Assembly (NCBI GenBank): GCA_019639255.1
Contig: JAHBSF010000008.1
Span: 21,148 to 85,147 of the forward strand
DNA length: 64,000 nt
Direction of reading: 5' to 3'
Source: Acidobacteriota bacterium
Lineage (GTDB): Bacteria > Acidobacteriota > Blastocatellia > RBC074
Under the pieces are notes generated by a model. The model saw only the letters and a list, made by a program, of their open reading frames with translations, was not told the origin of the DNA and ran no database searches. Made by a program: the position numbers and the translations under genes. Position 1 is the stretch's first letter, and every line of letters begins with the position of its first letter. This document shows, piece by piece, positions 1,167 through 55,906 of this stretch.

Positions 1167-1323
1167 AAGGTGCGTGCTTGCAGGAATCGAAAATACGGAA
1201 CATACGCAATAAACTTCGACAAAACCTTTTCCATACGCCGCGTATTCTCTCCGAGGATCGGCGGCGAAATCAATCCGCGGGCATGTTATTATTTGCGGCG
1301 GAAAAGGATACGGTACTGCGTGT

Positions 1324-2154
1324 ATGAATCTGCTGCTTTTGGCTGCACTGATGGTTTATCTGGTCGGGGCTTTTTACGCCGTGCTGCTGTTTGCGCTGCG
1401 CAGGGAGGCCGCAGACCGCCCGCTGCTGATGCTGCTCGGAGCGGGATTCGCCGCGCATACGGCGTCGATAGCGGTGGAGTGGGCGCAGGTCGGGCATTTC
1501 CCCATAGTCAACCCGAAGGAAGTCAGTTCGTTCATAGGCTGGGCTATAGTGGCCTATTTTCTCGTAATCAGATGGCGCACGAGGGTGCGCGCGCTTGCGA
1601 CGTTCGTATTGCCGCTGGTGTTTCTCTTTACGCTTGTATCGCTGCTGTTGCCCGAACCCGCAATTTCTCCGGCGCTTGCGGGCGCAATCGACGCAAGCAC
1701 GTTTACGCGCGTGATCTTTCCGCTGCACGTTACGCTGATACTGTTTTCGTATGCGGCATTCTTCCTGACATTCATCGGCGGCATCATGTATCTGATGCAG
1801 GAGCGCGAACTGAAGGCGAAAACCTTCGGCGCCGTGTTTTATCGCCTGCCCGCGCTCAATACGTGCGACGAGCTGGGCTATCGCTCGCAGACGATCGGGT
1901 TCGTGCTGCTGACATTGGGAATGATTACCGGGATCATCTGGAACAATCAGCGCGACGGGCGCTTCTGGCATTACGATCCGAAAGAAGTGCTGGCGCTTAC
2001 GACCTGGTTCGTTTATCTGTTTATGATGCATTACAGGTTGACGGCGGGCTGGCGCGGCAAGCGCATAGCGTGGCTTTCGGTGATCGGTTTCGTAGTCGTT
2101 CTGTGCACGTGGATAGGGGCGCGCTACCTGCCCGGTTATCACGTATTCGGTTAA
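1324..2154 (+). CDS. Cytochrome c assembly protein, CcsA/HemX-like integral membrane protein
   Basis: 276 aa, polytopic and hydrophobic. Tryptophan-rich WWD-type motif GIIWNNQRDGRFWHYDPKEV. Sits immediately upstream of hemA, which is the conserved ccsA/hemX-hemA arrangement. Confidence 0.7.
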   Translation: MNLLLLAALMVYLVGAFYAVLLFALRREAADRPLLMLLGAGFAAHTASIAVEWAQVGHFPIVNPKEVSSFIGWAIVAYFLVIRWRTRVRALATFVLPLVFLFTLVSLLLPEPAISPALAGAIDASTFTRVIFPLHVTLILFSYAAFFLTFIGGIMYLMQERELKAKTFGAVFYRLPALNTCDELGYRSQTIGFVLLTLGMITGIIWNNQRDGRFWHYDPKEVLALTTWFVYLFMMHYRLTAGWRGKRIAWLSVIGFVVVLCTWIGARYLPGYHVFG

Positions 2155-2285: not shown

Positions 2286-3569
2286 ATGAGCATCATTCTG
2301 ATCGGGATCAGCCACAAGACGGCGCCTATAGAGCTGCGCGAGCGGCTCGCTTTTGCCGAGGACCGTCTCGGCGCGGCGCTAGCGCAACTCGTCGACCGCG
2401 AGGCAATCGAGGAAGGGCTCATACTCTCGACGTGCAACCGCGTAGAGATACTCGCATCCGCCAGCCGTGCGCCGGAACACGGCGTAGAGCATCTGTTCGA
2501 TTTCCTCGCGCATCACCACGACTGTGCGGTGGAAACGCTGCGCCGCCACGCCTACCATCACGTAGACCAGGATGCTATTCGGCACGTATTCCGCGTCACG
2601 TCGAGCCTCGATTCGATGGTCGTGGGCGAACCGCAGATTACGGGCCAGATGAAGGAAGCCTATCAGCGCGCGCAACAGGCGCAGACCGTGGGTCGGCATC
2701 TGCATCGATTGATGAATCGCGCGTTTGCAGTAGCCAAGCGCGTGCGCAACGAAACCGGGATTGGATCGAGCGCGGTATCGATCAGTTTCGTAGCGGTGGA
2801 GCTTGCGCGCAAGGTATTCGATCGGCTCGACGGGGCAAGCGTGCTGCTGCTGGGAGCGGGCGAGATGGCGGAACTCGCCGCGCGCCACCTTTCCGGTTAC
2901 GGCGCATCGCGTTTGCTGATAGCCAACCGGACGCGCGAGCATGCCGAAAGTCTTGCGGCGGAATTGAACGGCGAAGCCGTGGCGTTTGCAGATTTCGAGC
3001 GCCGAATGAGCGAAGCCGACATCGTGATCTGTTCTACGGGCGCACCGAATTATCTGATCCGGCCCGAAGCCGTGCGCAGCGCGGTTGCGGCGCGGCGCAA
3101 CCGCCCGATGCTGCTTATAGACATATCGGTGCCGCGCAATATCGATCCGGCCTCGGCCTCGATCGACAATGCATTTGTCTTTGATGTAGACGATCTTGAA
3201 AACGTGGTTGCAGCCAATCGCGAGGAACGCGAGCGCGAAGCATTCCGCGCCGAAGCAATCATCACAGCCGAGGCCGACAGATTTGCCGCTGCGCTCGCCG
3301 AGGGCGACCCGACGCAGGTTATAGGCGCGTTTCGGCGCGAGGTGGCGCTTATGGTTCAGGTTGAACTCGAACGCAGCCGCCGAAGGCTTGGACCGCTGTC
3401 CCCGGAACAGGAACGAGCAATCAGAACGCTGCTGAATTCCGTGGTCGACAAACTGACGATGCCGGTCATCAAACAGTTGCGTGAAAGCGAAGACGGCCAC
3501 TCGCACTTTCTCGAAGCGTGGCGCGAACTTTACCCGCACCGCGATCGCGAAGAAGATAAAGAAGAATAA
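2286..3569 (+). CDS. hemA: Glutamyl-tRNA reductase
   Basis: 427 aa. N-terminus MSIILIGISHKTAPIELRE and catalytic Cys motif LSTCNRVEIL. NADP-binding GAGEMAELAARHL. C-terminal dimerisation helix. Confidence 0.92.
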   Translation: MSIILIGISHKTAPIELRERLAFAEDRLGAALAQLVDREAIEEGLILSTCNRVEILASASRAPEHGVEHLFDFLAHHHDCAVETLRRHAYHHVDQDAIRHVFRVTSSLDSMVVGEPQITGQMKEAYQRAQQAQTVGRHLHRLMNRAFAVAKRVRNETGIGSSAVSISFVAVELARKVFDRLDGASVLLLGAGEMAELAARHLSGYGASRLLIANRTREHAESLAAELNGEAVAFADFERRMSEADIVICSTGAPNYLIRPEAVRSAVAARRNRPMLLIDISVPRNIDPASASIDNAFVFDVDDLENVVAANREEREREAFRAEAIITAEADRFAAALAEGDPTQVIGAFRREVALMVQVELERSRRRLGPLSPEQERAIRTLLNSVVDKLTMPVIKQLRESEDGHSHFLEAWRELYPHRDREEDKEE

Positions 3570-3624
3570 CCAAACAACCAGCAAGACCGCCCTCTCATCC
3601 CCTACTCTCATCTCAGGAGGCTCA

Positions 3625-6600
3625 ATGAATCACAACGATCGCCGCAGCCGCACGCTTTCCGTCGCGGTTCTGCTTTGCTGTTTTGCGCTGACGATCGGCG
3701 CCGTCCCGGGATTTTTTTCGCAATCGAGCGCACGATCCGCGCCGCAGGAACCCGCAAGAAGCGAGGGCGTACGCGTCGAAGCCGCCGGTATCAGCGCGTC
3801 TGCCCTGCGACAGATTCAATCCCTCGCGGCCGAAAAGCAGGCGCGCACTCCCGCGCAGCGCAAAATAAGCTCTCAGCTTCTTTACGCTGCACGAATGCAC
3901 GGCGGACGAAGGGTGAGTTCAGAGGTCAATACGCTCGAAGTAGCAGCCGAGATAAGCGACGACGGAATGACTACGGTCGACCTCACTGGCCGAATTACCG
4001 GGATGCTCGTCGAGCGCATAGAGGAACTCGGCGGGACGGTGCTGAACGCCTTTCCGCGCCTCAACAGCCTGCGTGCGCGGATTCCGATAGAAATAATCGA
4101 AACGATCGCCGAATTGCCCGAAGTCGGATTCATTTATCCCAAACAGGTTGCATTCACCTCGAGCGGCAGATCCAACTCCGATTATAAGCATCGCACAACA
4201 GCCTATACGGGAACCGGGGCGCGACCGGCGTTTGAGGAACGCGCCGAGCGCGTGCGCAGGCATCTTTCTTCCGTAATTCCGCGTGCTTCGGCCTCATCGT
4301 CCGCAACGACACAGGAAAGAATTGCAGTCTCCACGCTCAGCACTGCCTCATCGTCCGCAACGATGCAGGATGGGATTGCGGTTGAAGGCGACGTAGCGCA
4401 TCGCGCCGACCTTGCACGCAATACGTTCGGCATCAACGGCGCGGGTGTAAAAATCGGCGTGCTGTCGGACGGCGTGACGAATCTGAGGGTCAGTCAGGCG
4501 CGAGGAGCGCTTCCCTCCGTTACGGTTCTGAACGGACAGGCCGGCGAGGGCGACGAAGGCACTGCAATGCTCGAAATCATCCACGCAGTAGCGCCGGGTG
4601 CACAACTGTTTTTTGCTACCGCATTCGAAAGCGCCGCAGGATTCGCCACGAATATTCGCGCTCTTCGCATCGCGGGCTGCGACATCATCGTCGACGATGT
4701 ATTTTACATCACCGAATCAGCGTTTCAGGACGGGCAATCGGGCACGATCGTTTCGCCCACGGGCGGCGGACTTATCGCGCAGGCGGTCAACGATGTAACG
4801 GCAAGCGGCGCGATGTTTTTCTCTTCGGCGGGAAATTCGGGGAACCTGGCAAGGGGAACTTCCGGCGCTTGGGAAGGGGATTTCAGGGACGGCGGCGGCG
4901 CATTTTCACCGCTCCCGATTGATGCCGGAAGGATTCACGACTTCGGCGGCAATCGCCTGAGCAATCAGATAACCGTGAGCACGCCGTTTCCCGTCATCCT
5001 GCAATGGAGCGATCCGCTCGGAGCTTCAAACAACGATTACGATCTGTACGTGCTCAACAGCGGGGAAACGCAACTGCTCGCCGCTTCGGTAGACGTGCAG
5101 AACGGAACGCAGGATCCGTTCGAATTCGTGCTGCCGCAACTGGCGGGGCGCCGCATAGTCATCGCGCGTTATTCGGGCGAAAACAGATTCCTGCATCTGA
5201 ACACCAATCGCGGGCGGCTCGCCATTCCCACCGACGGCCAGTTGCACGGACACGCGGCCGGAGCCGCAGCTTTTGCAGTAGCCGCAACGCCCGCATTCCT
5301 GCCCTTCGGCCCGCCGCCCAACCCGTCGGGGCCGTTTCCGGGGGCGTTTTCGATGTCGAACCGCGTCCAGTTATTTACCTCGGACGGGCCGCGCCGCCTG
5401 TTTTTCAGAGGCGACGGATCGCTTTTTACGCCGGGTAATGCGCTCGCATCGGGCGGTCTGCTCAGGCAAAAGCCCGATATAACGGCGGCGGACGGAGTAT
5501 CGGTCAGCGGAGTGGGATTTTTCCCGAGTCCTTTTTACGGCACATCAGCCGCAGCGCCGCACGCCGCCGCGATCGCTGCGCTGTTGAAATCCGCCAATCC
5601 GGCATTCACTCCCGCACAGTTGCGCCAGGCAATGTTATCTACGGCAATCGATATAGAAGCGCCGGGCGCGGACGTGCTTTCCGGAGCCGGAATAGTCATG
5701 CCGGTTAACACGGCTCAATCTCTCGGAATCGAACCGATGGCCTCGCTCAACCTCGGCGTCGTCGCCGTGGCTGAAATCGGCGGCAACGGCAACGGTATAG
5801 TCGAGGCGGGGGAAAGCGCGAGGCTTTCAGTCGAAATCAGAAACACCGGTTCGGTCGATGCATCGAATGTCCGAGCCGTGCTCACAAGCCTTTCTCCGGA
5901 AGTATTCGCCGCGCCGACCGAGGTTGTTTACGGCGATATCGCTGCGGGAAGTTCGGCGACGATCGGAGTTTTCGAGTTTACGTTGAGCACCGTAAGCGCG
6001 TGCGACCTGCGCGCGGCTCTGTCGCTGCAACTCAACTACACGGGAGGACCGAGCCCGAAAGCTCTCAATTTCCAGGTGCAGACCGGGCCGCCGCCAATAG
6101 ATATTACATCCACGCTCGACGCCGTTGCTCCGCCGCCCGGTTTGAACTACACGACGACAACCGGAATGCAGGCGGGACGAATGGTGAGAACGATCATTGC
6201 GAGCGCGTGCGGCGCGCCGACGCCGTTTCCGGGCATCTTCTCGACGCTCGCGCGGCGCTTTGACGCTTATACTTTTTCGTCGTGCCCCACAAGCGCCCCA
6301 ACGTGTGTAACGGTAACGCTGCGTTCGCCGTGCACGGGCAATCGCGGCGTATTCGCTTCGGTTTATCTCGATTCGTATGATCCGAACAACATAGAGATGA
6401 ACTATCTCGGGGACATAGGCGACAGCCCCTTTCCCGACGAGGTGCTTGCATTCAGCTTTCAGTTGCCGCGCGGGCGCAAGTTTGTAGTCGTTGTGCATGA
6501 GATAAATCCCGGGGGAAGCACCGGCTGCGAATACACGATCAACGTATCTGGACTGTGCCGTTCGTGCGAGGCGGCGAATCTGATATGCGTTCAGGACGAC

Positions 6601-11084: not shown

Positions 11085-11176
11085 ACTGAACGGAAGCAAC
11101 CAGAGAAATCGAACTTTTCCGTTTATTCCGTTCATTCCGGATGTTCCGGATGTTCCGGATGTTCCGTAGTCTCTCT
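11085..11176. repeat. Degenerate family-1 element carrying (GGATGTTCC)x3 tandem repeat
   Basis: cggaagcaaccagagaaatcgaacttttccgtttattccgttcattccggatgttccggatgttccggatgttccgtagtctctc. Confidence 0.6.
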
Positions 11177-11195
11177 TCGATATACGACTTCAGGC

Positions 11196-11340
11196 CAGCA
11201 ATACCCGGTTTAGAAAGAAAGAGAGATAACGGAACAAACGAAATGATACGAAAATTACCGAAAAGTCGAATATTTCCGTTTGTTCCGTCTTATTTCGTTT
11301 GTTCCGTTATCTCTCTTTCTTTCTAAACCGGGTATTGCTG
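11196..11340. repeat. Family-1 element (copy 4) with ~25-bp copy-specific extended palindromic flanks
   Basis: cagcaatacccggtttagaaagaaagagagataacgg ... ccgttatctctctttctttctaaaccgggtattgctg. The inverted repeat extends well beyond the family core. Confidence 0.9.
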
Positions 11341-16496: not shown

Positions 16497-16600
16497 CAAA
16501 AGAGAGATAACGGAACAAACGAAATTAGACGGAACAAACGGAAATATTCAACTTTTCCGTAATTTTCGTTTCATTTCGTTTGTTCCGTTATCTCTCTTTT
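16497..16600. repeat. Family-1 palindromic intergenic element (copy 5)
   Basis: aaaagagagataacggaacaaacgaaattagacggaacaaacggaaatattcaacttttccgtaattttcgtttcatttcgtttgttccgttatctctcttttc. Confidence 0.9.
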
Positions 16601-22883: not shown

Positions 22884-22960
22884 TCAATACACTTCGTTTA
22901 TGCAGTACTGAGGGGCTCTCAGGGATATGATGTGGTGGCATCAGAATGGAGGATGCGGCC

Positions 22961-24100
22961 ATGATTAAGGAAATTTCGCTGGAGAATTTCAGAAACCACT
23001 CAAAGACGACGATCAGGCCCGGTCGTGTGACGGCGCTTGTCGGGACGAATGGGAGTGGCAAGACTTCTCTGCTCAAAGGCCTTAATCATCTTACGAAATC
23101 CCTCCAGAGAATCGACCAGGGATTCTCCTGGGACTCTTATTTCCAAGGAGACTGCGACCCCGCAGTGATCGTGCGGCGTGGACAGACTCACGTCTCCTTC
23201 GGTGCTGAAGGGGGAGATAAAACTGCCGATTGGTCGATCCAGATCGGCCTCAACTTGTCACCAAACCCATCTGTCCCCTCAAAAAGCCTGCCTCTGGATT
23301 GCAAGGCAAGGTATGGAGGTCAGCGTTATGACATGCACCAAGCCAGTCTGAAAGATAAAAACCCGCTTGAGCTAGCAAGAAAAGCGCTGGGAGAATCTTT
23401 TTACTTCAAAGGAATTGGGCAAAACATTGCCCGGCCCACCTACTCACCACATACTACGCCCCTACTTGAGGCAGATGGCAGTTATCTGGCTTCAGTGATT
23501 GCCTACCTGATGACTAATGAACGAGGTAAGGTTGAAGAAATCGAAAAGTCGTTGCGCGCTATTGTTCCGATTGTCAGGCAAATTCGCGTCAAGCCAACAA
23601 AGCTGACTTGGCAGGAAAAGAAAGTCGTCTCAATCAACGGCACTCAGGTGCCCTATGAAGAGCAGAGGGAAGTCATCGGCCATCAGTTGCTGATCGATAC
23701 TAACAGCGCCGATGAGGTGCCAGCCGACGCCTTGAGTGAGGGAACACTTCTTGTTCTGGCGGTACTGACTGTGCTTTGGGGGCCGGCTTGTCCGAAATTG
23801 ATTTTATTGGACGATGTCGAGCAGGGTCTCCATCCTATTGCCCAGCGCGAAACAATGCAGATACTTAGACAATTCGCTGAGCAGCAGCAGAGGCAAATCA
23901 TCGTCACGAGCCATTCACCATATATCATTGACGAACTTGACCCACAGGATGTGTGGGTAATGGCGACCGATGCGAAAGGAGTAAGTATCACCAAATGTCT
24001 GAAAGATCACCCTGACTCCGAGCGCCTCAAACAGGTGCTTACAACCGGCGAACTGATTGGCGCCGTCGGTGAAGATTGGGTAATACATCAAGCCCAATGA
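22961..24100 (+). CDS. ABC-type (AAA_21/OLD-like) ATPase, candidate defence-system ATPase subunit
   Basis: N-terminus MIKEISLENFRNHSKTTI. Walker A GTNGSGKTSLL, ABC signature-like LSEGTLLVL, Walker B LILLDDVEQGLHP, H-loop IIVTSHSPYI. About 50% GC versus >60% in the flanks. An alternative ATG lies at 22946. Confidence 0.75.
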   Translation: MIKEISLENFRNHSKTTIRPGRVTALVGTNGSGKTSLLKGLNHLTKSLQRIDQGFSWDSYFQGDCDPAVIVRRGQTHVSFGAEGGDKTADWSIQIGLNLSPNPSVPSKSLPLDCKARYGGQRYDMHQASLKDKNPLELARKALGESFYFKGIGQNIARPTYSPHTTPLLEADGSYLASVIAYLMTNERGKVEEIEKSLRAIVPIVRQIRVKPTKLTWQEKKVVSINGTQVPYEEQREVIGHQLLIDTNSADEVPADALSEGTLLVLAVLTVLWGPACPKLILLDDVEQGLHPIAQRETMQILRQFAEQQQRQIIVTSHSPYIIDELDPQDVWVMATDAKGVSITKCLKDHPDSERLKQVLTTGELIGAVGEDWVIHQAQ

Positions 24101-24853
24101 TTGGAGATCAGGATGATCGAGATTGCAGTGGTGGCGGAGGCCGAGGCTGACCTACGCATCGCCTCGAAACTTGCTGATCGGATGCTATTTCTTGAAGACC
24201 CATGCTCCTGGCTCCACGGCCAGCACCCTGAGGATTTCCGGTCGTGGTGCGGCCTTAAACCGGGTACAACCTTTACCAGGTGGCCTGAAATCCGCTCACT
24301 GAGCAAATCATTTCCGCGATTGATGTACCTGCGCCGAAATCAGCCCGAACCACGACTACCGGACTATGCACCAGCTCGAAAAGCAATTCTCCTTTCCACG
24401 TTATTGCGCCCAAAATCACCACCAAGCGCTTTGCTGCTCATACGGGATCTCGATAACCAGGAGGAGCGGCGAGCAGGGCTTAAGCAGGCAATAAGTGAAA
24501 TACCTACGCTCGTCGTCTTAATAGCAACACCAAATCCACAACGTGAAGCATGGGTCTTAAACGGATTCCTTTGCGGCAACGAATCTGAATCCGGCGAACT
24601 CCGGCAAATCACTCGCGACTTAGGATTTGATCCTTGCATTCAAGCAGAAAGACTACGACACTCTTCCAGGACCGACTCTCCTGAACGCGACCCCAAACGA
24701 ATCGTTGAACGATTGACTGAAGGGAAATTTGAGCGCGAAGAACTCTGTTGGACGCAGACATCTATTACGATGTTGCGTGACAGAGGAGAGAAAACTCACC
24801 TCGCGGATTATCTCGACGAAGTAAGGCGGCTACTGCCCCTTCTCGGGCAATAA
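24101..24853 (+). CDS. Small Toprim-like protein (DUF4276-like by recollection) translationally coupled to the ATPase, candidate nuclease/effector subunit
   Basis: Starts at TTG 24101 (or ATG 24113), directly abutting the ATPase stop codon at 24098-24100. Acidic beta1 motif IEIAVVAEAEAD and a later DxD-like LIRDLDNQEE, consistent with a Toprim fold. Assignment is by motif only. Confidence 0.5.
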   Translation: MEIRMIEIAVVAEAEADLRIASKLADRMLFLEDPCSWLHGQHPEDFRSWCGLKPGTTFTRWPEIRSLSKSFPRLMYLRRNQPEPRLPDYAPARKAILLSTLLRPKSPPSALLLIRDLDNQEERRAGLKQAISEIPTLVVLIATPNPQREAWVLNGFLCGNESESGELRQITRDLGFDPCIQAERLRHSSRTDSPERDPKRIVERLTEGKFEREELCWTQTSITMLRDRGEKTHLADYLDEVRRLLPLLGQ

Positions 24854-24896: not shown

Positions 24897-25131
24897 GAAT
24901 CTCTCAGAGCGTGTTTTGAAAGCCCCGAAGGGGCGAAAGATCTGTAGCCTGGTGCGCAAGCGCCAGGTCAAATCGAGAAACGCGTCCGAGCCCTGAAAGG
25001 GCGAAAGACCTATACAACGGGGATCTTCCGCCCTTTCAGGGCTGAAATTGATGTTGGCCCGATACCCAGGGCTTACGCCGCTGGGCTACAGGTCTCTCGC
25101 CCCTTCAGGGCTTTCAAAACACGCTCTCAGA
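24897..25131. repeat. Family-2-related large nested palindrome (variant copy C)
   Basis: ctctcagagcgtgttttgaaagccccgaaggggcgaaagatctgtagcc...ggctacaggtctctcgccccttcagggctttcaaaacacgctctcagag. Shares the core ggcgaaagatctgtagcc with copies at 35.4 kb and 53.6 kb. Confidence 0.8.
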
Positions 25132-25207
25132 GTTGGGTTTGAGGTTGACGGCGCCCAGCGTAGGAATTCCGCTCTTCAGCCCCGATTTCGGCGCTTTGAG
25201 AGGGATG

Positions 25208-28744: not shown

Positions 28745-28820
28745 AATATAACGAAAATTACCGAAAAGTTGAATATTTCCGTATGTTCCGTCTTATTTCG
28801 TTTGTTCCGTTATCTCTCTT
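28745..28820. repeat. Family-1 element (copy 8, left arm truncated)
   Basis: aacgaaaattaccgaaaagttgaatatttccgtatgttccgtcttatttcgtttgttccgttatctctct. Confidence 0.8.
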
Positions 28821-32657: not shown

Positions 32658-32707
32658 AGAGAGATAACGGAACAAACGGAACAAAACAAACGGAAAGAAC
32701 CGAAAAG
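32658..32707. repeat. Family-1 half-element (one arm only) immediately upstream of the thrB start
   Basis: agagataacggaacaaacggaacaaaacaaacggaaagaaccgaaaag, then ATG at 32708. Confidence 0.7.
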
Positions 32708-34778: not shown

Positions 34779-35408
34779 ATGCTGACCATAGCAATTTCCA
34801 AAGGAAGAATGCAGGATGCGACGCTTGCGCTGTTTGCGCGCGCGGGCATCGAAGCAAAGGAAGAAGCGCTGCGTTCGCGCCGATTGCTGATCGAGACAGC
34901 GGACGGCCGGTGCAGTTTTATTTTCGTCAAACCGGGCGATGTGCCAACGTATGTGGAATACGGCGTGGCGGACGCGGGCGTATGCGGCCGGGATGTTTTG
35001 CTGGAGTCGCGGGCAGAGGTTCACGAGCCGCTGGACCTGAAGCTGGGTTACTGCCGGCTGGCGGTAGCGGGCAGGCGCGAAGTTCTGGGCGAGGACTACA
35101 ACCTGCTTGCAACCGTGCGCGTTGCGACGAAGTTTCCGCGCATCACATCGGAGTATTTCCACGAACGCGGTATACCGATCGAGGTAATTACGCTTTCCGG
35201 TTCGGTGGAGATCGCGCCGCTGCTGGGGCTGTCGGACAGGGTAGTGGATCTGGTGGAGACGGGGCGCACGCTGCGCGAAAACGGCCTCGAAGTAATCGAC
35301 GTCATAATGGAATCAACGGCAAGACTCATAGTCAATCGCGCGAGCTTTCACCTGAAACGCGAAGAGATAAGCCGGTTGATTGCCGATGTCGGCGCGGTCG
35401 TAGAATGA
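34779..35408 (+). CDS. hisG: ATP phosphoribosyltransferase, short form
   Basis: MLTIAISKGRMQDATLALFARAGIE... ~210 aa short form lacking the C-terminal regulatory domain, consistent with the HisZ partner. Confidence 0.9.
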   Translation: MLTIAISKGRMQDATLALFARAGIEAKEEALRSRRLLIETADGRCSFIFVKPGDVPTYVEYGVADAGVCGRDVLLESRAEVHEPLDLKLGYCRLAVAGRREVLGEDYNLLATVRVATKFPRITSEYFHERGIPIEVITLSGSVEIAPLLGLSDRVVDLVETGRTLRENGLEVIDVIMESTARLIVNRASFHLKREEISRLIADVGAVVE

Positions 35409-35420
35409 TGAAGTGCAGCA

Positions 35421-35740
35421 GTGCTGAAGTAGAAGTGCTGAGTGCTGAGTCCTGAGTGCTGAGTGCAAATAGGAACTGAAGAACTTCTATACTCCGTCAA
35501 ACAAGTTCTTTGAGTTTATCAGCCGCGGAGCGGCGAAAGATCTGTAGCCCAGGGCGGCGAGCCCTGGGTAAGTGTAGAGAAGCCGTACCAGCCCCGGAGG
35601 GGCGGAAGATCTTTCGCCCTTTCAGCGCTCGGGCGTTCTGTTTTTTCTGACCTGGCGCTCACGCACCAGGCTACAGATCTTTCGCCGCTCCGCGGCTGAA
35701 AAACTCAAAAACTTTGTTTACAGAGCACTGAGTACGACAG
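35421..35740. repeat. Family-2 large palindrome (copy A) with GTGCTGAGT repeats, located between hisG and hisD
   Basis: gtgctgagtgctgagtcctgagtgctgagtgcaaataggaactgaagaacttctatactccgtc...ggcgaaagatctgtagcccagggc...gccctgg...gctacagatctttcgccgctccgcggctgaaaaactcaaa...cagagcactgagtacgac. Confidence 0.85.
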
Positions 35741-35761
35741 TGTTTGGTGGATAGTGATTTT

Positions 35762-37087
35762 ATGATTGAGATCATCACACTGGAGACGGGAAATCCGGCG
35801 GAGAGTCCGAAGTTGAAGCGGATTCTGGGCCGCACGGGCGGACTCGACGCCGAAGTGCTTGTGCGCACCGACGCCGTAGTGCGCGATGTGCGCGCGCGAG
35901 GCGATGCGGCGATTCTTGAATACACTGCAAGATTCGATGGCGTCACCCTTACGCCCGCAACCCTGCGCGTCGAACGCGAACAAATCGAGGCGCTCGCCGC
36001 ACAAGTCGATTCAGAACTGATCGCCGCGATGCGCGAGGCGATCGCCAACATCCGCCACTACCACGCACATCAACGCGCAGGCGACTGGGAAATCGAGCGC
36101 CGCAACGGCGTGCGACTCGGTCAGCGCGTGCGCCCGCTCGGAATCGTCGGATTGTACGTGCCCGGCGGAAGCGCAGCCTATCCGTCAACCGTGATGATGA
36201 ATGCGATACCGGCGCAGGTCGCAGGCGTAGAGCGCATCGTAGTCGTCACGCCCCCGGCGCAATTTGCGCGCAATCCGGTGATTGCAGCCGTACTGAACGA
36301 ACTCGGATTGTTCGAGGTTTACACGATCGGAGGCGCGCAGGCCGTAGCCGCGCTCGCCTACGGCACCGCCACCCTTCCGCGCGTGGACAAAATCGTAGGC
36401 CCCGGCAATCAGTACGTCGCTGCTGCCAAAAAGATCGTCTACGGCGTCGTGGATATAGATTCGATCGCCGGGCCGAGCGAAATCGTGGTCATTGCGGACG
36501 ATTCGGCGCGTCCGGATTACGTGGCCGCCGATATGCTCTCGCAGGCGGAGCATTCCGAAGATGCAGCGGCGATTCTCGTTACAACGAGCGGCGATCTGGC
36601 TGAAGCGGTGCGCGCCGAAATAATCAAACAGACCGGGCATCTGTCACGCCGCGCAATCATTGAAAAGTCGCTGCGCGATTACGGCGCGATCATAGTCGTC
36701 GGATCGACGGAAGCGGCGACGGCGCTCGTAGACCGGCTCGCGCCCGAACACGTAGAGGTAATGACGGAAAACGCGGAAATCGATGCGGCGCGATTGCGGC
36801 ACGCGGGAGCGATATTCATCGGCCCCTATTCGCCGGAACCCGTCGGAGATTATTTCGCCGGGACAAACCACGTGCTGCCTACGGGCGGAACGGCGCGGTT
36901 TTCCTCGGCGTTGGGCGTTTACGATTTTCTGAAACGAACCAGCATCATTCGCTACACCGAAGCCGAACTTGCACAAACGGCCGGAGCGATAGACCGGCTT
37001 GCGCGCGCCGAGGGTTTCGACGCGCACGCGCGCGCGGCTACGATCAGAACGGAAGGAAACAGAGAGATAACGGAACAAACGAAATAA
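35762..37087 (+). CDS. hisD: Histidinol dehydrogenase
   Basis: MIEIITLETGNPAE..., motifs GGAQAVAALAYGT, SQAEHSEDA and Zn/His ligands. The last ~10 codons of the ORF run into the family-1 element; the real stop may lie slightly earlier. Confidence 0.9.
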   Translation: MIEIITLETGNPAESPKLKRILGRTGGLDAEVLVRTDAVVRDVRARGDAAILEYTARFDGVTLTPATLRVEREQIEALAAQVDSELIAAMREAIANIRHYHAHQRAGDWEIERRNGVRLGQRVRPLGIVGLYVPGGSAAYPSTVMMNAIPAQVAGVERIVVVTPPAQFARNPVIAAVLNELGLFEVYTIGGAQAVAALAYGTATLPRVDKIVGPGNQYVAAAKKIVYGVVDIDSIAGPSEIVVIADDSARPDYVAADMLSQAEHSEDAAAILVTTSGDLAEAVRAEIIKQTGHLSRRAIIEKSLRDYGAIIVVGSTEAATALVDRLAPEHVEVMTENAEIDAARLRHAGAIFIGPYSPEPVGDYFAGTNHVLPTGGTARFSSALGVYDFLKRTSIIRYTEAELAQTAGAIDRLARAEGFDAHARAATIRTEGNREITEQTK

Positions 37088-43297: not shown

Positions 43298-43348
43298 TTT
43301 CGTCTTTCAGTTTGTTCCGTTTATTCCGTTTATTCCGTTGTCTCTCTT
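43298..43348. repeat. Family-1 half-element next to the oxidoreductase start
   Basis: tttcgtctttcagtttgttccgtttattccgtttattccgttgtctctcttc. Confidence 0.6.
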
Positions 43349-49508: not shown

Positions 49509-49612
49509 GGAAAGAGATAACGGAACGAACGGAAATAAACGAAACAAACGGAAGGAAGTCTCTTTTCCGTATGTTTCGTTCTTTTTCGTTTGTTCCGTTA
49601 TCTCTCTTCTTT
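49509..49612. repeat. Family-1 element (copy 15)
   Basis: aaagagataacggaacgaacggaaataaacgaaacaaacggaag-gaagtctctt-ttccgtatgtttcgttctttttcgtttgttccgttatctctct. Confidence 0.85.
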
Positions 49613-52962: not shown

Positions 52963-53574
52963 TCAGGGCGAAACGACGCCTCCGGTTTGAACCTCGAGTT
53001 CTTCGAGCGATGCGCTCAAATGCGGATCGAAGCATTCGCGGCAGCGCGCCTCATAGGCTCCGGCGGCGCCGACTACTACGCGCTCCTTGCGGTGAATCAG
53101 CCGCTGCGTGTAGGTCGCCGGGTTGCCGCAGCACATACAAATGGCGCGCGTCTTTGTAATGTCCTCGGCTATTGCGAGCAGTTGCGGCATCGGCTCGAAG
53201 GGGCGGCCGAGATAGTCCATATCCAGGCCGGCGATTACCACGCGTTTGCCCTGATCCGCGAGTTGATTGGCTACGCGCACAAGATCCGAATCGAAGAACT
53301 GCCCCTCGTCTATGCCGATGACGTCGGTATCCACATCTACGATGGCGAGGATTTCGCCCGCGGAACCGACCAGATCCGAGTCGATTTTCATTTCCGAGTG
53401 CGAAACGATGTGGGACATAGAGTAGCGTTCATCTATAGCGGGTTTGAAGATCTGCACCTTCTGGCGCGCGATCTGTGCGCGGCGCAGGCGGCGAATGAGT
53501 TCTTCGCTTTTGCCGCTGAACATCGATCCCGTTATCACTTCTATCCAGCCCGCATCAGATGAATGCCGTTCCAA
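52963..53574 (-). CDS. tdk: Thymidine kinase
   Basis: P-loop [11 protein letters not shown] and C-terminal zinc ribbon CMCCG...C..C. Confidence 0.92.
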
Positions 53575-53640: not shown

Positions 53641-54098
53641 GGGGAGAAGAAAGTGCTGAGTGCGAGGGGGAAGAAGAAAGTGCTGAGTGCTGAGTGCTGA
53701 GTGCTGAGTGCAATTTGGAACTGAAGAACTTCTATACTCCGTCGAGAAAGTTCTTTGAGTTTTTCAGCCGCGGTAGCGGCGAAAGATCTGTAGCCCAGGG
53801 CGGCAAGCCCTGGGTAGGTGTAGAGAAACCGTACCAGCCCCGGAGGGGCGGAAGATCTTTCGCCCTTTCAGGGCTTGAACATTTTTTTCTGCTGACCTGG
53901 CGCTCACGCACCAGGCTACAGATCTTTCGCCGCTACCGCGGCTGAAAAACTCAAAGAACTTTCTCGACGGAGTATAGAAGTTCTTCAGTTCCAAATTGCA
54001 CTCAGCACTCAGCACTCAGCACTCAGCACTCAGCACTCAGCACTCAGCACTTCTTCTTCAGGTGCTTCTTCCTCCTCTTGATCTTCCACGATCAAGCC
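53641..54098. repeat. Family-2 giant near-perfect palindrome (~450 bp, copy B) capped at both ends by (GTGCTGAGT)n tandem arrays
   Basis: Left array has 4-5 gtgctgagt units, right array has 7 gcactcagc units. Core ggcgaaagatctgtagcccagggcggcaagccctgggtaggtgtagagaaaccgtaccagccccggaggggcggaagatctttcgccc and its mirror. The mirror-image ORFs 53694-53945(+) and 53764-54015(-) share an identical N-terminus. Confidence 0.9.
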
Positions 54099-54170: not shown

Positions 54171-55817
54171 ATGCGGCGTACGTTTCTGGTAATCCTTCTC
54201 GGCCTCAGTCTGCTCAATCCGCTGCCGATGGCGGCGCAGGAGCCCGTAGACGCTTCGGTCAACGAGCGCATCGAGCGCGAGGGAATGAACAATTCCCGGA
54301 TCATGCAAACATTGCATTATCTGACCGACATGTACGGCCCGCGCCTTACGGGTTCGCCCTATCACAAGGCGGCGGCAGAATGGGCGGCGAAGGAAATGAC
54401 CAAATGGGGCCTGGCCAACGCCAGGCTCGAACCGTGGGATTTCGGTCATCCGGGCTGGCTCAACGAACGCCTTACAGCACATATCATTTCTCCGGTCAAG
54501 GATCATTTGACGGGCGAGGTGCTGGCCTGGACGCCGAGCACTCCCGGAGTCGTTACAGCGCAGGCTTTCCACCTCATTCCGCCCGACCGTCCGACCGCCG
54601 AGCAGTTGACCGCTTACCTGGATTCGGTAAAAGAGCGTGTGCGCGGGAAAATCGTGCTGGTCGGCAAACATCAATTCGTGCCCGTGACGATCACGCCTTC
54701 GACCCGGCGCGTAGAGGATGCGCAGCTTCGGCAGCGTTTTGATCCCAACAATCAGAACGCCGATCAGAGGCCGCCCTTTGCGCGTGGACAGCAGGGACCT
54801 CCGCCGCAGCCCGGCGTGCTCAACCCGCGCCAGATCGCCGAGCAGATCGACGCATTTCTTGTTGCAAACGGCGCAGCCGTGCGCATAGATGACGGCGGGC
54901 GCGAACACGGACAGATACGCGCATTCCACAACCGCACCTTCGATCCCTCGAAGGTCGCGCCCACCGTGATACTGCGCAACGAGGATTTCGGCCGCATTTC
55001 GCGATTGCTCGCAAACGGCTCGCCTGTAGAGCTTGAATTCAACGTCGTCAACCGCATCTATCCCGAAGGCCGGACCTCCTACAACGTCGTCGCCGAAATT
55101 CCCGGAACCGACAAGGGCGATGAAGTCATCATGCTCGGCGGACATCTGGATTCGTGGCACGCAGCGACCGGAGCTACCGACAACGCCATCGGCTGCGCGG
55201 TGATGATGGAAGCGGCGAGGATCATTCACTCGCTCGGCCTCAAGCCCCGGCGCACCATAAGGGTCGCGCTCTGGGGCGGCGAGGAACAGGGTCTGCTCGG
55301 ATCGCTCGCCTACGTAAAGGAACACTTCGGCACGGCCGAAAATCCAAAACCCGCATACGAAAAATTCGGCGGTTATTTCAATATCGATACGGGTACGGGA
55401 CGCGTTCGGGGACTGACCGTATTCGGGCCGCCCGAAGCGGCTTCGGTAATAAGGGAGATAATCGCGCCGTTCGAGAAATTCGGCGTAATGGGCGCGGCCG
55501 CATCGCGCAGCCGCGGCCTCGGCGGTTCGGATCATACCTCTTTCAATCAGGCGGGCCTGCCCGGCATAGGCGCGATGCAGGATCCCATCGAATACGGCTC
55601 GGCTACCTGGCATACGAACCTCGACACCTATGAGCGGATCATAGAGGACGACGCCAGGAAGTCCGCCGTAGTCATCGCGTCGGCGGTATATCATCTTGCG
55701 ATGCGCGATCAACTGCTGCCGCGTTTTGCCGGGGATCAGATGCCGCAACCGCCCGGCGCGCGTCCGGCAACGCCTCCCGTGACCCCGGCTGCGCCCGCGC
55801 GGCAAGGCAACCGGTAA
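54171..55817 (+). CDS. Secreted M28-family metallopeptidase (aminopeptidase) with PA domain
   Basis: Signal peptide [24 protein letters not shown]28 zinc ligands [29 protein letters not shown] and [13 protein letters not shown]. Confidence 0.85.
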
Positions 55818-55906
55818 AGATGACGGAACAAGCGAAAGTACACGAAACAAACGGAAAGTAACTGTTTTCGTTTGTTTCGTTTCTTTCCGTTTGTTCCATT
55901 ATCTCT
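55817..55906. repeat. Family-1 element (copy 17, divergent)
   Basis: aagatgacggaacaagcgaaagtacacgaaacaaacggaaag-taactg-ttttcgtttgtttcgtttctttccgtttgttccattatctct. Confidence 0.8.

Follow-up and report, generated by a model that had tools for sequence, protein, structure and literature searches.

The Acido-Lenti-1 motif (RF01687) was described by Weinberg et al. 2010, whose only remark on it was that it is found near group II introns in Lentisphaerae, and Rfam holds it as a 46-nt model typed as a small RNA (sRNA) of unknown function (PMC2864571). By definition, REPs (repetitive extragenic palindromic sequences) are short imperfect palindromes with a 5' GT[AG]G at the hairpin foot (PMC6006769), and systems of REPs, bacterial interspersed mosaic elements (BIMEs) and REP doublets (REPINs) with a REP-associated tyrosine transposase (RAYT, or TnpA-REP) are known from Proteobacteria (PMC3116915, PMC3337134, PMC6006769). 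The Y1 transposases of TnpAY1 subclass 1.2 (Quentin et al. 2018) have the signature Y---Q--HH and were described as being without terminal structures (PMC6006769). Here, three palindromic repeats (copies A, B and C) are described from a window of 64,000 nt, the whole stretch of DNA that was analyzed, from an Acidobacteriota bacterium of the Blastocatellia (RBC074; assembly GCA_019639255.1, contig JAHBSF010000008.1, positions 21,148 to 85,147). Their common core is built of Acido-Lenti-1 modules and is probably the joined left and right ends of a ~0.7-kb element of the IS200/IS605 superfamily without its Y1 (HUH) gene, which would make it a non-autonomous mobile element. In the texts on Acido-Lenti-1 in the library searched, as far as these were available, no connection to a transposase was found.

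The repeats that the initial annotation had placed in the window were all present where it located them, at 35410-35740 (copy A), 53643-54075 (copy B) and 24900-25132 (copy C), and its view of a dispersed repeat family with a nested dyad architecture was borne out. All three copies are intergenic and share a core of ~180 nt, which consists of two inverted RF01687 modules and two inner small hairpins. The 18-mer GGCGAAAGATCTGTAGCC occurs 10 times in the 64-kb window at up to 3 mismatches, compared to 0.06 occurrences expected.

Read from the outside inward, a module comprises a small hairpin (GCCGC-nnn-GCGGC), the linker GAAAGATCT, the sequence GTAG and a GC-rich hairpin of 8 bp. Two more small hairpins lie between the modules, around a short palindrome (GGCGGAAGATCTTTCGCC in A and B). 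One of the six window modules exceeded the curated gathering score of RF01687, which is 37 bits, with a score of 37.4 bits; the other five were found at a relaxed threshold and scored 26-36.8 bits, and homologous modules from Blastocatellia scored 40.2-43.7 bits. In an alignment of 55 modules (A3), 91.6% of cells were paired, as compared to at most 45% in a control with slid partners. Nine of 13 pairs had changed on both sides, the observed values were reached in none of 500 shuffles, and covariation was seen in both hairpins. Both the 8-bp and the 5-bp hairpin of RF01687 were recovered, GCTA was invariant in the aligned modules, and GTAG stood immediately before the 8-bp stem in nearly all 55 of them.

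The large hairpins of the doublets were 96% self-paired, as compared to 85% complementarity across the arms, and the two large hairpins were unlike each other in 22 of 26 doublets. In the window these hairpins are CCCAGGGC/GCCCTGGG and CCTGGTGC/GCGCCAGG, and partners differ at 6-7 of 16 stem positions with each still self-complementary. Because the hairpins are self-paired and yet unlike their partners, the constraint appears to act on each hairpin and not on the long palindrome. The difference between the two hairpins of a doublet also indicates that the two ends of the element are not alike. Judged in this way, copy C, which shares the core but has other outer arms, as had been noted, carries its core in the orientation opposite to that of A and B. 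Folding of both strands, which the initial annotation had called for, gave energies far below those of shuffled sequences for copy A (z = -11.7 [-174 kcal/mol] and -13.7 on its two strands) and copy B (z = -30). Matches of the long hairpin to microRNA families (MIR8670 and others) were far below thresholds and reflect the palindrome only.

Modules of this kind were also found on either side of a transposase gene. Contig L041, titled as a Planctomycetaceae metagenome-assembled genome (MAG), carries modules at 1299-1350 (-) and 1925-1976 (+), at a distance of 630 nt rather than 150. Between them lies an open reading frame (ORF) at 1395-1847 encoding a protein of 150 residues that matches PF01797 (Y1_Tnp) over the whole profile (E = 3e-25). 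Homologues that are 51-63% identical, and that also carry a precomputed PF01797 annotation, were found at four further independent places (L192, L193-200, L201 and L202-205). At every one of these a module (-) lies 50-80 nt upstream of the Y1 gene and a module (+) lies 37-65 nt downstream, so that modules flank a Y1 gene at five independent places in total, all in other genomes. The gene is bracketed by the inner small hairpins as well, and the modules are inverted at every full element and every doublet. Since the modules bracket a Y1 gene elsewhere, the cores in the window would correspond to such an element reduced to its two ends by loss of the gene.

The Y1 family (20 sequences) has an invariant HUH motif and invariant residues Y115, Q119, H122 and H123 (Y---Q--HH; motif YIxxQxxHH). 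Its nearest solved structures are the TnpA proteins of IS608 and ISDra2; the RAYT of E. coli, which also has a solved structure, was not among the PDB matches. The two contigs whose source name gives a phylum, L041 and L192, are Planctomycetes MAGs. The Y1 element of L041 (1299-1976) contains the exact Blastocatellia-type linker GGCTACAGATCTTTCGCC in a MAG titled Planctomycetaceae, which suggests possible horizontal transfer between phyla or a binning error. On L201, a 4.4-Mb contig, ~13 tandem Acido-Lenti-1 modules with a 74-nt period (154-1103) lie upstream of the Y1 gene, and this array resembles the 74-nt arrays in the Rfam seed coordinates for Lentisphaera. A RAYT-like ORF on contig L059 (Blastocatellia BP_40) was considered as the partner and rejected, as it stands 6.4 kb away from the element and has different inverted repeats of its own on either side (71-112 and 768-810). 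This ORF (141-719, (-)) is a class 2 RAYT-like Y1 gene (DHIH..WQ..YIHQNP), and with its repeats it is, judged by these motifs, probably a second Y1/repeat system in the same lineage.

Species-representative genomes were scanned with the core 18-mer. The scan returned ~25 doublets of ~190-210 nt from MAGs of Blastocatellia/Pyrinomonadaceae, with at least 12 loci in one MAG (BP_42), and single modules from Thermoanaerobaculia. About half of the matches in the genome scan (Pseudomonas, Paenibacillus and others) were chance matches with no hairpin, and a single match in viral contigs, likewise without a hairpin, was taken as chance. Plus/minus module pairs 125-210 nt apart were present in most Blastocatellia loci, as they are in all three window copies, and the sequence beyond the outer small hairpins was unrelated between copies. 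The gaps between genes that the doublets occupy are short, and all four gene orientations are represented (12 co-directional, 5 divergent and 4 convergent). No direct repeat abutting the ends and no target duplication was seen at the ~25 doublets, which fits a Y1 mechanism and argues against a miniature inverted-repeat transposable element (MITE) of the DDE type. In one Blastocatellia MAG, contig L028 carries tandem 70-nt copies of one module (3021-3510), and the 3' end of a neighboring ORF (3474-4142, (-)) enters the repeats. This ORF matches PF13495 and the N-terminal part of PF00589 and looks like a truncated, putative integron-type tyrosine recombinase. The idea of integron attC sites, which arose from this contig, was dropped: no R'/R'' (GTTRRRY) core sites were seen by eye, and the Y1 link explains more.

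Two of the window copies could be compared with the corresponding loci of relatives. The genes next to them are as follows.

34779-35408, (+) strand: hisG, upstream of copy A (PF01634 on the deposited gene call)
35762-37087, (+) strand: hisD, downstream of copy A (PF00815; 100% identical to P0001 of the Blastocatellales MAG GCA_026129895.1)
52963-53574, (-) strand: tdk, reading away from copy B (PF00265)
54171-55817, (+) strand: M28 peptidase gene, reading away from copy B (PF04389)

Copy A does lie between hisG and hisD on their strand, as had been proposed, and may be transcribed together with them; the gap is exactly 353 nt in the deposited annotation. In a relative with an 83% identical HisD the two genes are 9 nt apart, in two relatives at 79% they overlap by 4 nt, and no module is present in the hisG-hisD loci of these relatives. 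As the relatives compared have no such gap, the whole of copy A, heptamer repeats included, is extra DNA. Upstream of tdk, a relative whose thymidine kinase is 88% identical aligns up to CCTTTGACC, and homology is lost at the edge of copy B (53642/53643); its tdk upstream region contains neither the module nor heptamers. This relative does not share the tdk-M28 synteny, and only the left boundary of B is set by it. Copies A and B, with their arms and heptamer caps, are thus most probably lineage-specific insertions. The initial annotation had argued that retention of such palindromes implies function or recent origin, and of these two the recent origin fits the vacant sites in relatives. The stop codon of hisG (GAA TGA TGA AGT GC.., 35403-35420) lies at the very edge of the inserted DNA, and HisG is one residue shorter than that of the nearest relative (..VVE* compared to ..VIEK*); the insertion may have supplied the stop codon. 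In one relative, a small PF05635 gene (23S rRNA-intervening-sequence protein) lies between hisD and hisC (L069/L070, 4370-4720) and is apparently another lineage-specific insertion in the his operon.

Module conservation, hairpin covariation, inverted intergenic doublets, the bracketing of Y1 genes at five places and the absence of A and B from relatives are the observations on which the proposed identity of the core as gene-less transposon ends is based. Recognition of hairpins in single-stranded DNA followed by mobilization is established for IS608-type TnpA, and for RAYTs acting on REPs (PMC6006769). By analogy, a Y1 enzyme encoded elsewhere in the genome would recognize the GTAG-footed hairpins in single-stranded DNA, and would cut and rejoin beside them as in IS608 'peel and paste' or in the cleavage of REPs by RAYTs. 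Such cutting and rejoining would move doublets without target-site duplication. In a transcribed spacer such as hisG-hisD the element would fold into a very stable RNA structure. There, copy A would take the place of the translational coupling that links hisG and hisD in relatives, and the stability of his mRNA may be affected by it in the manner of REPs and BIMEs.

The modules resemble RF01687 in having two hairpins, in the conserved GGCUA after the first hairpin and in the phylum in which they occur, and the curated score is passed by one module of the window and by several from Blastocatellia. The Rfam seed alignment already contains clusters of copies, both tandem and inverted. Unlike the motif as described, however, the modules here form inverted doublets with two extra inner hairpins, are insertion-polymorphic and flank a Y1 transposase gene, and their linker is CAGAUCUUUCGCC where Rfam has auuUAUgcCG. 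The likeness to REPs and REPINs lies in an extragenic palindrome that is short and GC-rich and has GTAG at its 5' foot, in many copies per genome, in inverted hairpin-forming doublets without target duplication, and in a Y1 gene flanked by inverted copies in a REPtron-like manner (at the five places in other genomes). In contrast to those systems, each module has a second small hairpin, giving 4-6 hairpins per ~200-nt doublet, the two large hairpins of a doublet differ, and the partner has the motif Y---Q--HH of the class 1 type in place of the Y---NP of RAYTs. Because the partner does not have Y---NP, the doublets are REPIN-like and do not form a RAYT system in the strict sense.

With IS200/IS605 and its gene-less derivatives the elements share a Y1/HUH transposase of ~150 residues (PF01797), subterminal hairpins, joined left and right ends without a gene, and insertion without target duplication. 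Among haloarchaea, the 'PATE' elements are gene-less, MITE-like derivatives of IS200/IS605. The ends described here differ in being inverted, where IS200/IS605 hairpins stand on the same strand, and in showing no conserved tetra- or pentanucleotide target in their flanks, which were compared with relatives at 79-88% protein identity. The enzyme itself agrees with TnpAY1 subclass 1.2 in its invariant Y---Q--HH, its length of ~150 residues and its closeness to IS200 TnpA, an assignment made by motif only, whereas its genes have conserved hairpin modules on both sides. The TIRYTs and TIRtrons and the class 3 TnpAY1 described from Acidobacteria and Planctomycetes (Di Nocera et al. 2013, PMC3733652; Quentin et al. 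2018) are likewise Y1 genes flanked by inverted structured repeats that are also dispersed as families, with ~600 copies reported in Solibacter. Class 3 TnpAY1 proteins have the motif Y----Q (consensus YV[VI]xEQ) and the hairpin foot CnGA (Quentin et al. 2018, PMC6006769). The foot GTAG and the motif YIxxQxxHH set the present system apart from class 3, a distinction drawn from the protein motif and the hairpin foot. Mobile hairpin repeats are an ordinary category, and it is the pairing of an Rfam 'sRNA' with an orphan Y1 subclass that appears to be new.

Several points weigh against the identification of the core as the ends of a Y1 element. A cognate Y1 enzyme is only presumed for the source genome and for Blastocatellia, since tblastn of the Y1 family against the window and all fetched loci matched L041 alone, and nothing in the window or in ~35 Blastocatellia loci. 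The doublet flanks hold no conserved target or cleavage motif. As the nearest relatives share only 79-88% protein identity, the insertion boundaries are approximate. Y1 enzymes normally cut next to hairpins, and A and B extend outward for more than 100 nt beyond theirs, so that mobilization of the whole composite by a Y1 enzyme is not straightforward. The ends are inverted repeats, which those of IS200/IS605 are not, and the partner protein does not have the RAYT signature Y---NP. Finally, the source genome is represented by the three copies within 64 kb.

The features of copy B, in order, are as follows.

53643-53678, unstranded: outer left edge, purine-rich with one isolated GTGCTGAGTGC; imperfect mirror at 54052-54075 (74% complementary pair)
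53679-53711, (+) strand: left heptamer array, (AGTGCTG) x 4.7, reading GTGCTGA; period 7 and 100% matches by Tandem Repeats Finder (TRF)
53712-53763, unstranded: left outer arm of ~52 nt, shared with copy A alone (91% identity to the left arm of A); its complementarity to the right arm is 100%
53764-53945, unstranded: core doublet, left end plus right end, with the architecture of the ~25 doublets of Blastocatellia MAGs
53762-53817, (-) strand: left Acido-Lenti-1 module, large hairpin 53794-53814, GTAG 53790-53793; 66.9 bits (E = 6e-16) with our own covariance model R1, 26 bits with RF01687, below the gathering score of 37
53837-53874, unstranded: center, inner small hairpins 53837-53849 and 53862-53874 around the palindrome GGCGGAAGATCTTTCGCC at 53847-53864, with partial module matches
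53893-53947, (+) strand: right Acido-Lenti-1 module, large hairpin 53896-53915; 68.2 bits with R1, 28 bits with the Rfam model
53946-53997, unstranded: right outer arm, pairing with the left arm as an inverted arm
53998-54051, (-) strand: right heptamer array, (GCACTCA) x 7.7 by TRF, longer than the left array
54052-54075, unstranded: outer right edge, pyrimidine-rich mirror of 53643-53678

The left half of the B core reads small hairpin, GAAAGATCT, GTAG, large hairpin, spacer, inner small hairpin and central GGCGGAAGATCTTTCGCC, and the right half continues with inner small hairpin, spacer, large hairpin, CTAC, AGATCTTTC and small hairpin. The center corresponds to the position of the Y1 gene in full elements, and in L192 and L193 the Y1 gene likewise has an inner hairpin just upstream of it. 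Copies A and C are made up as follows.

35410-35466, (+) strand: heptamer array of A, degenerate then regular (TRF rows 35400-35441 and 35434-35466, the latter of 4.7 copies), beginning 2 nt past the hisG stop codon
35467-35520, unstranded: left outer arm of A, 91% identical to the B arm
35521-35697, unstranded: core doublet of A, modules 35517-35571 (-) and 35648-35701 (+) with 69.5 and 69.3 bits under R1; the right module (35651-35697) is the one above the RF01687 gathering score of 37, at 37.4 bits
35698-35740, unstranded: right outer arm of A, truncated or degenerate, with about one heptamer-like unit kept
24900-25132, unstranded: copy C, core 24921-25112, own 20-nt outer arms at 24900-24920 and 25113-25132, no heptamer arrays; modules 24917-24970 (-) with 63.6 bits and 25062-25116 (+) with 56.4 bits under R1 (36.8 and 32.7 bits with the Rfam model)

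Copy B had been taken for a near-perfect palindrome with an exact mirror. Its inverted arms (53679-53802 and 53907-54030) do match over 124 nt with 98% complementarity, and a weaker outer pair is present at 53669-53711 and 54033-54075, but the central 104 nt (53803-53906) are not mirrored and the two large hairpins in them differ (CCCAGGGC.. compared to CCTGGCGC..). The argument that SbcCD should destabilize a long perfect palindrome would therefore carry less weight than had been assumed. The mirror-image ORFs at 53694-53945 (+) and 53764-54015 (-), which share their first 34 residues, are by-products of the palindrome, in agreement with their earlier treatment as artefacts. The tandem caps are not the 9-mers reported before; TRF gives a period of 7 with the unit GTGCTGA. 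They may be arrays to which a protein binds, as had been suggested. The shell of ~50-nt arms and heptamer arrays surrounds the core in A and B and is absent from C. Between A and B the arms are 91% and the core 90% identical, and this equal divergence indicates that the composite was copied as a unit. The arms of B are fully complementary to each other though they differ from those of A, which indicates that the arms of a copy stay matched. The 50-nt arms had no homologue in any fetched locus, and a 23-mer from the outer arm had no match in the metagenome collection.

The heptamer itself is widespread. A 25-nt heptamer probe matched at least 120 contigs from soil and sediment metagenomes (L071-L190), with 2-17 units each, and one of these contigs looks planctomycetal. 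Among the matches listed, 28 contigs had arrays on opposite strands within 400 nt of each other, all 30 of the pairs were ordered (GTGCTGA)n...(TCAGCAC)n, and the spacers enclosed by them, of 12-152 nt, were unrelated. In 614 kb of heptamer-bearing contigs no convincing match to the module model was obtained. The unit gives TGA in all three frames when read one way and is open when read the other way; among the matches listed, starts of long ORFs were ~3 times as frequent 0-20 nt after (TCAGCAC)n as after (GTGCTGA)n. The spacers often hold other short tandem units (GAGTTGG/GAGTTAG, GAGTAAC, CCGACTA, TGAGTAA and AATCCGC; for example L111 2207-2310, L135 969-1050, L163 1235-1400 and L183 1300-1900), which indicates that several heptamer families coexist in those organisms.

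In the library searched, a literature search for the GTGCTGA heptamer returned eukaryotic chance matches only and no bacterial description. Comparable repeats are the cyanobacterial STRR, which are intergenic heptamer tandem repeats, and the TAACTGA repeats. The latter were reported from Beggiatoaceae, Cyanobacteria and Bacteroidetes, with 169 direct sets and one indirect repeat (MacGregor 2015, PMC4679880). The present arrays agree with both in the 7-nt unit with stops in all three frames one way and none the other, in their intergenic position and variable copy number, and in often lying a few nt upstream of start codons. They differ in the unit, in very often forming inverted pairs of fixed polarity (30 of 30 among the matches listed) and in capping a transposon-end doublet, as seen in the window. 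The heptamer arrays could conceivably be linked to subclass 1.2 Y1 enzymes, as both are reported from Cyanobacteria and Bacteroidetes and both are represented in this window.

The heptamer caps allow a different account of the two insertions. Copies A and B could belong to a second kind of element, consisting of the 50-nt arms and of heptamer arrays with a polarity, left (GTGCTGA)n and right (TCAGCAC)n; the doublet would be cargo, and the element would move by a mechanism of its own, with the Y1 enzyme irrelevant to both insertions. We regard this as unlikely, although it would explain why the caps belong to the inserted DNA at both sites, why arms and core have diverged almost equally between A and B, why the paired metagenome arrays share one polarity around unrelated spacers, and why no module was found among the heptamer-bearing contigs. 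Copy C, however, has the core without heptamers, the arms have no homologue in the fetched loci or the metagenome scan, there is neither a target duplication nor a candidate enzyme, and the unequal lengths of the arrays (4.7 and 7.7 units in B, 4.7 and ~1 in A) fit growth by slippage in place. The heptamers may thus be either microsatellites grown on hairpin flanks or the ends of a separate carrier element. A stronger form of the carrier idea, to which we give somewhat less credence still, is that the arrays terminate a hairpin element in its own right, widespread and not yet described, (GTGCTGA)n-cargo-(TCAGCAC)n of fixed polarity, which in A and B captured a Y1 doublet as cargo and then inserted between tightly coupled genes. 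If this were true, the polarity would present stops in all three frames to ribosomes arriving from either side, with the open orientation just upstream of starts, and an insertion would supply stops on entry and leave the downstream start free.

The Rfam type of RF01687 would imply that the modules are primarily functional structured RNA, whether as a small RNA or as an element that is selected at each site and acts in cis on processing or stability. Covariation was noted by the authors of that family and confirmed here, the predicted RNA folds are very stable, and copy A lies inside an operon. Against this, the doublets are quasi-palindromic and occur in all gene orientations, convergent and divergent gaps included, no promoter- or terminator-like signal beyond chance was found, and mismatches of the G-T and A-C kinds (19 compared to 10) show no clear strand bias. 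Modules also occur in tandem arrays (L028, L201 and the Rfam seed alignment) and on either side of a transposase gene, and the copies are insertions missing in relatives, which together make a primary RNA function very unlikely. Inverted ends, small size, intergenic location and multiple copies would equally suit a classical MITE moved by a DDE transposase that recognizes terminal inverted repeats; such a MITE is nevertheless extremely improbable, as none of the ~25 doublets has a target-site duplication and the only kind of gene found between such ends is Y1/HUH and not DDE. The long palindromes might also have been produced by short-read metagenome assembly, as the source is a MAG and Logan contigs, from a second assembler (read set SRR12908343), break inside both A and B; palindrome interiors and array lengths are known from the MAG assembly alone. 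The Logan contigs do reproduce the right-hand junctions of both, however, with L066 covering 35701-35761 on the right side of A and L206 the junction of the right heptamer array of B with its flank. Both elements are internal to a 233-kb contig with intact genes on either side, and dozens of MAGs from unrelated studies have a core of this same architecture, so that an assembly artefact is scarcely credible.

If the core does represent Y1 transposon ends, an Rfam 'sRNA' that has been of unknown function since 2010 would be explained as the hairpin that ends a Y1/HUH transposon and also its doublets without a gene, and the Y---Q--HH Y1 proteins would gain a candidate DNA substrate. The range of REPIN-like systems would widen to take in Acidobacteriota and Planctomycetota, where the partner would be other than a RAYT. 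Copy A would provide a natural case of a highly structured ~340-nt insertion that splits the translationally coupled hisG and hisD, useful for studying operon tolerance. Polar inverted heptamer arrays, for their part, are common in soil and sediment metagenomes.

Two further features of the window were recorded. Upstream of copy C, an AAA_21 ATPase gene (22946-24853) has PADLOC matches to HEC-01A, PDC-M07A and AriA, with E down to 1e-34, and is followed by a 250-residue ORF without a Pfam or PADLOC match; this region is the 'candidate defence island' of the initial annotation. Short arrays of the 9-mer TTCCGTTTG / AACGGAACA and related units were detected by TRF at 11117-11308, 16509-16543, 28777-28811, 32666-32685, 43306-43339, 49519-49599 and 55823-55895, and presumably correspond to what had been called the first repeat family.

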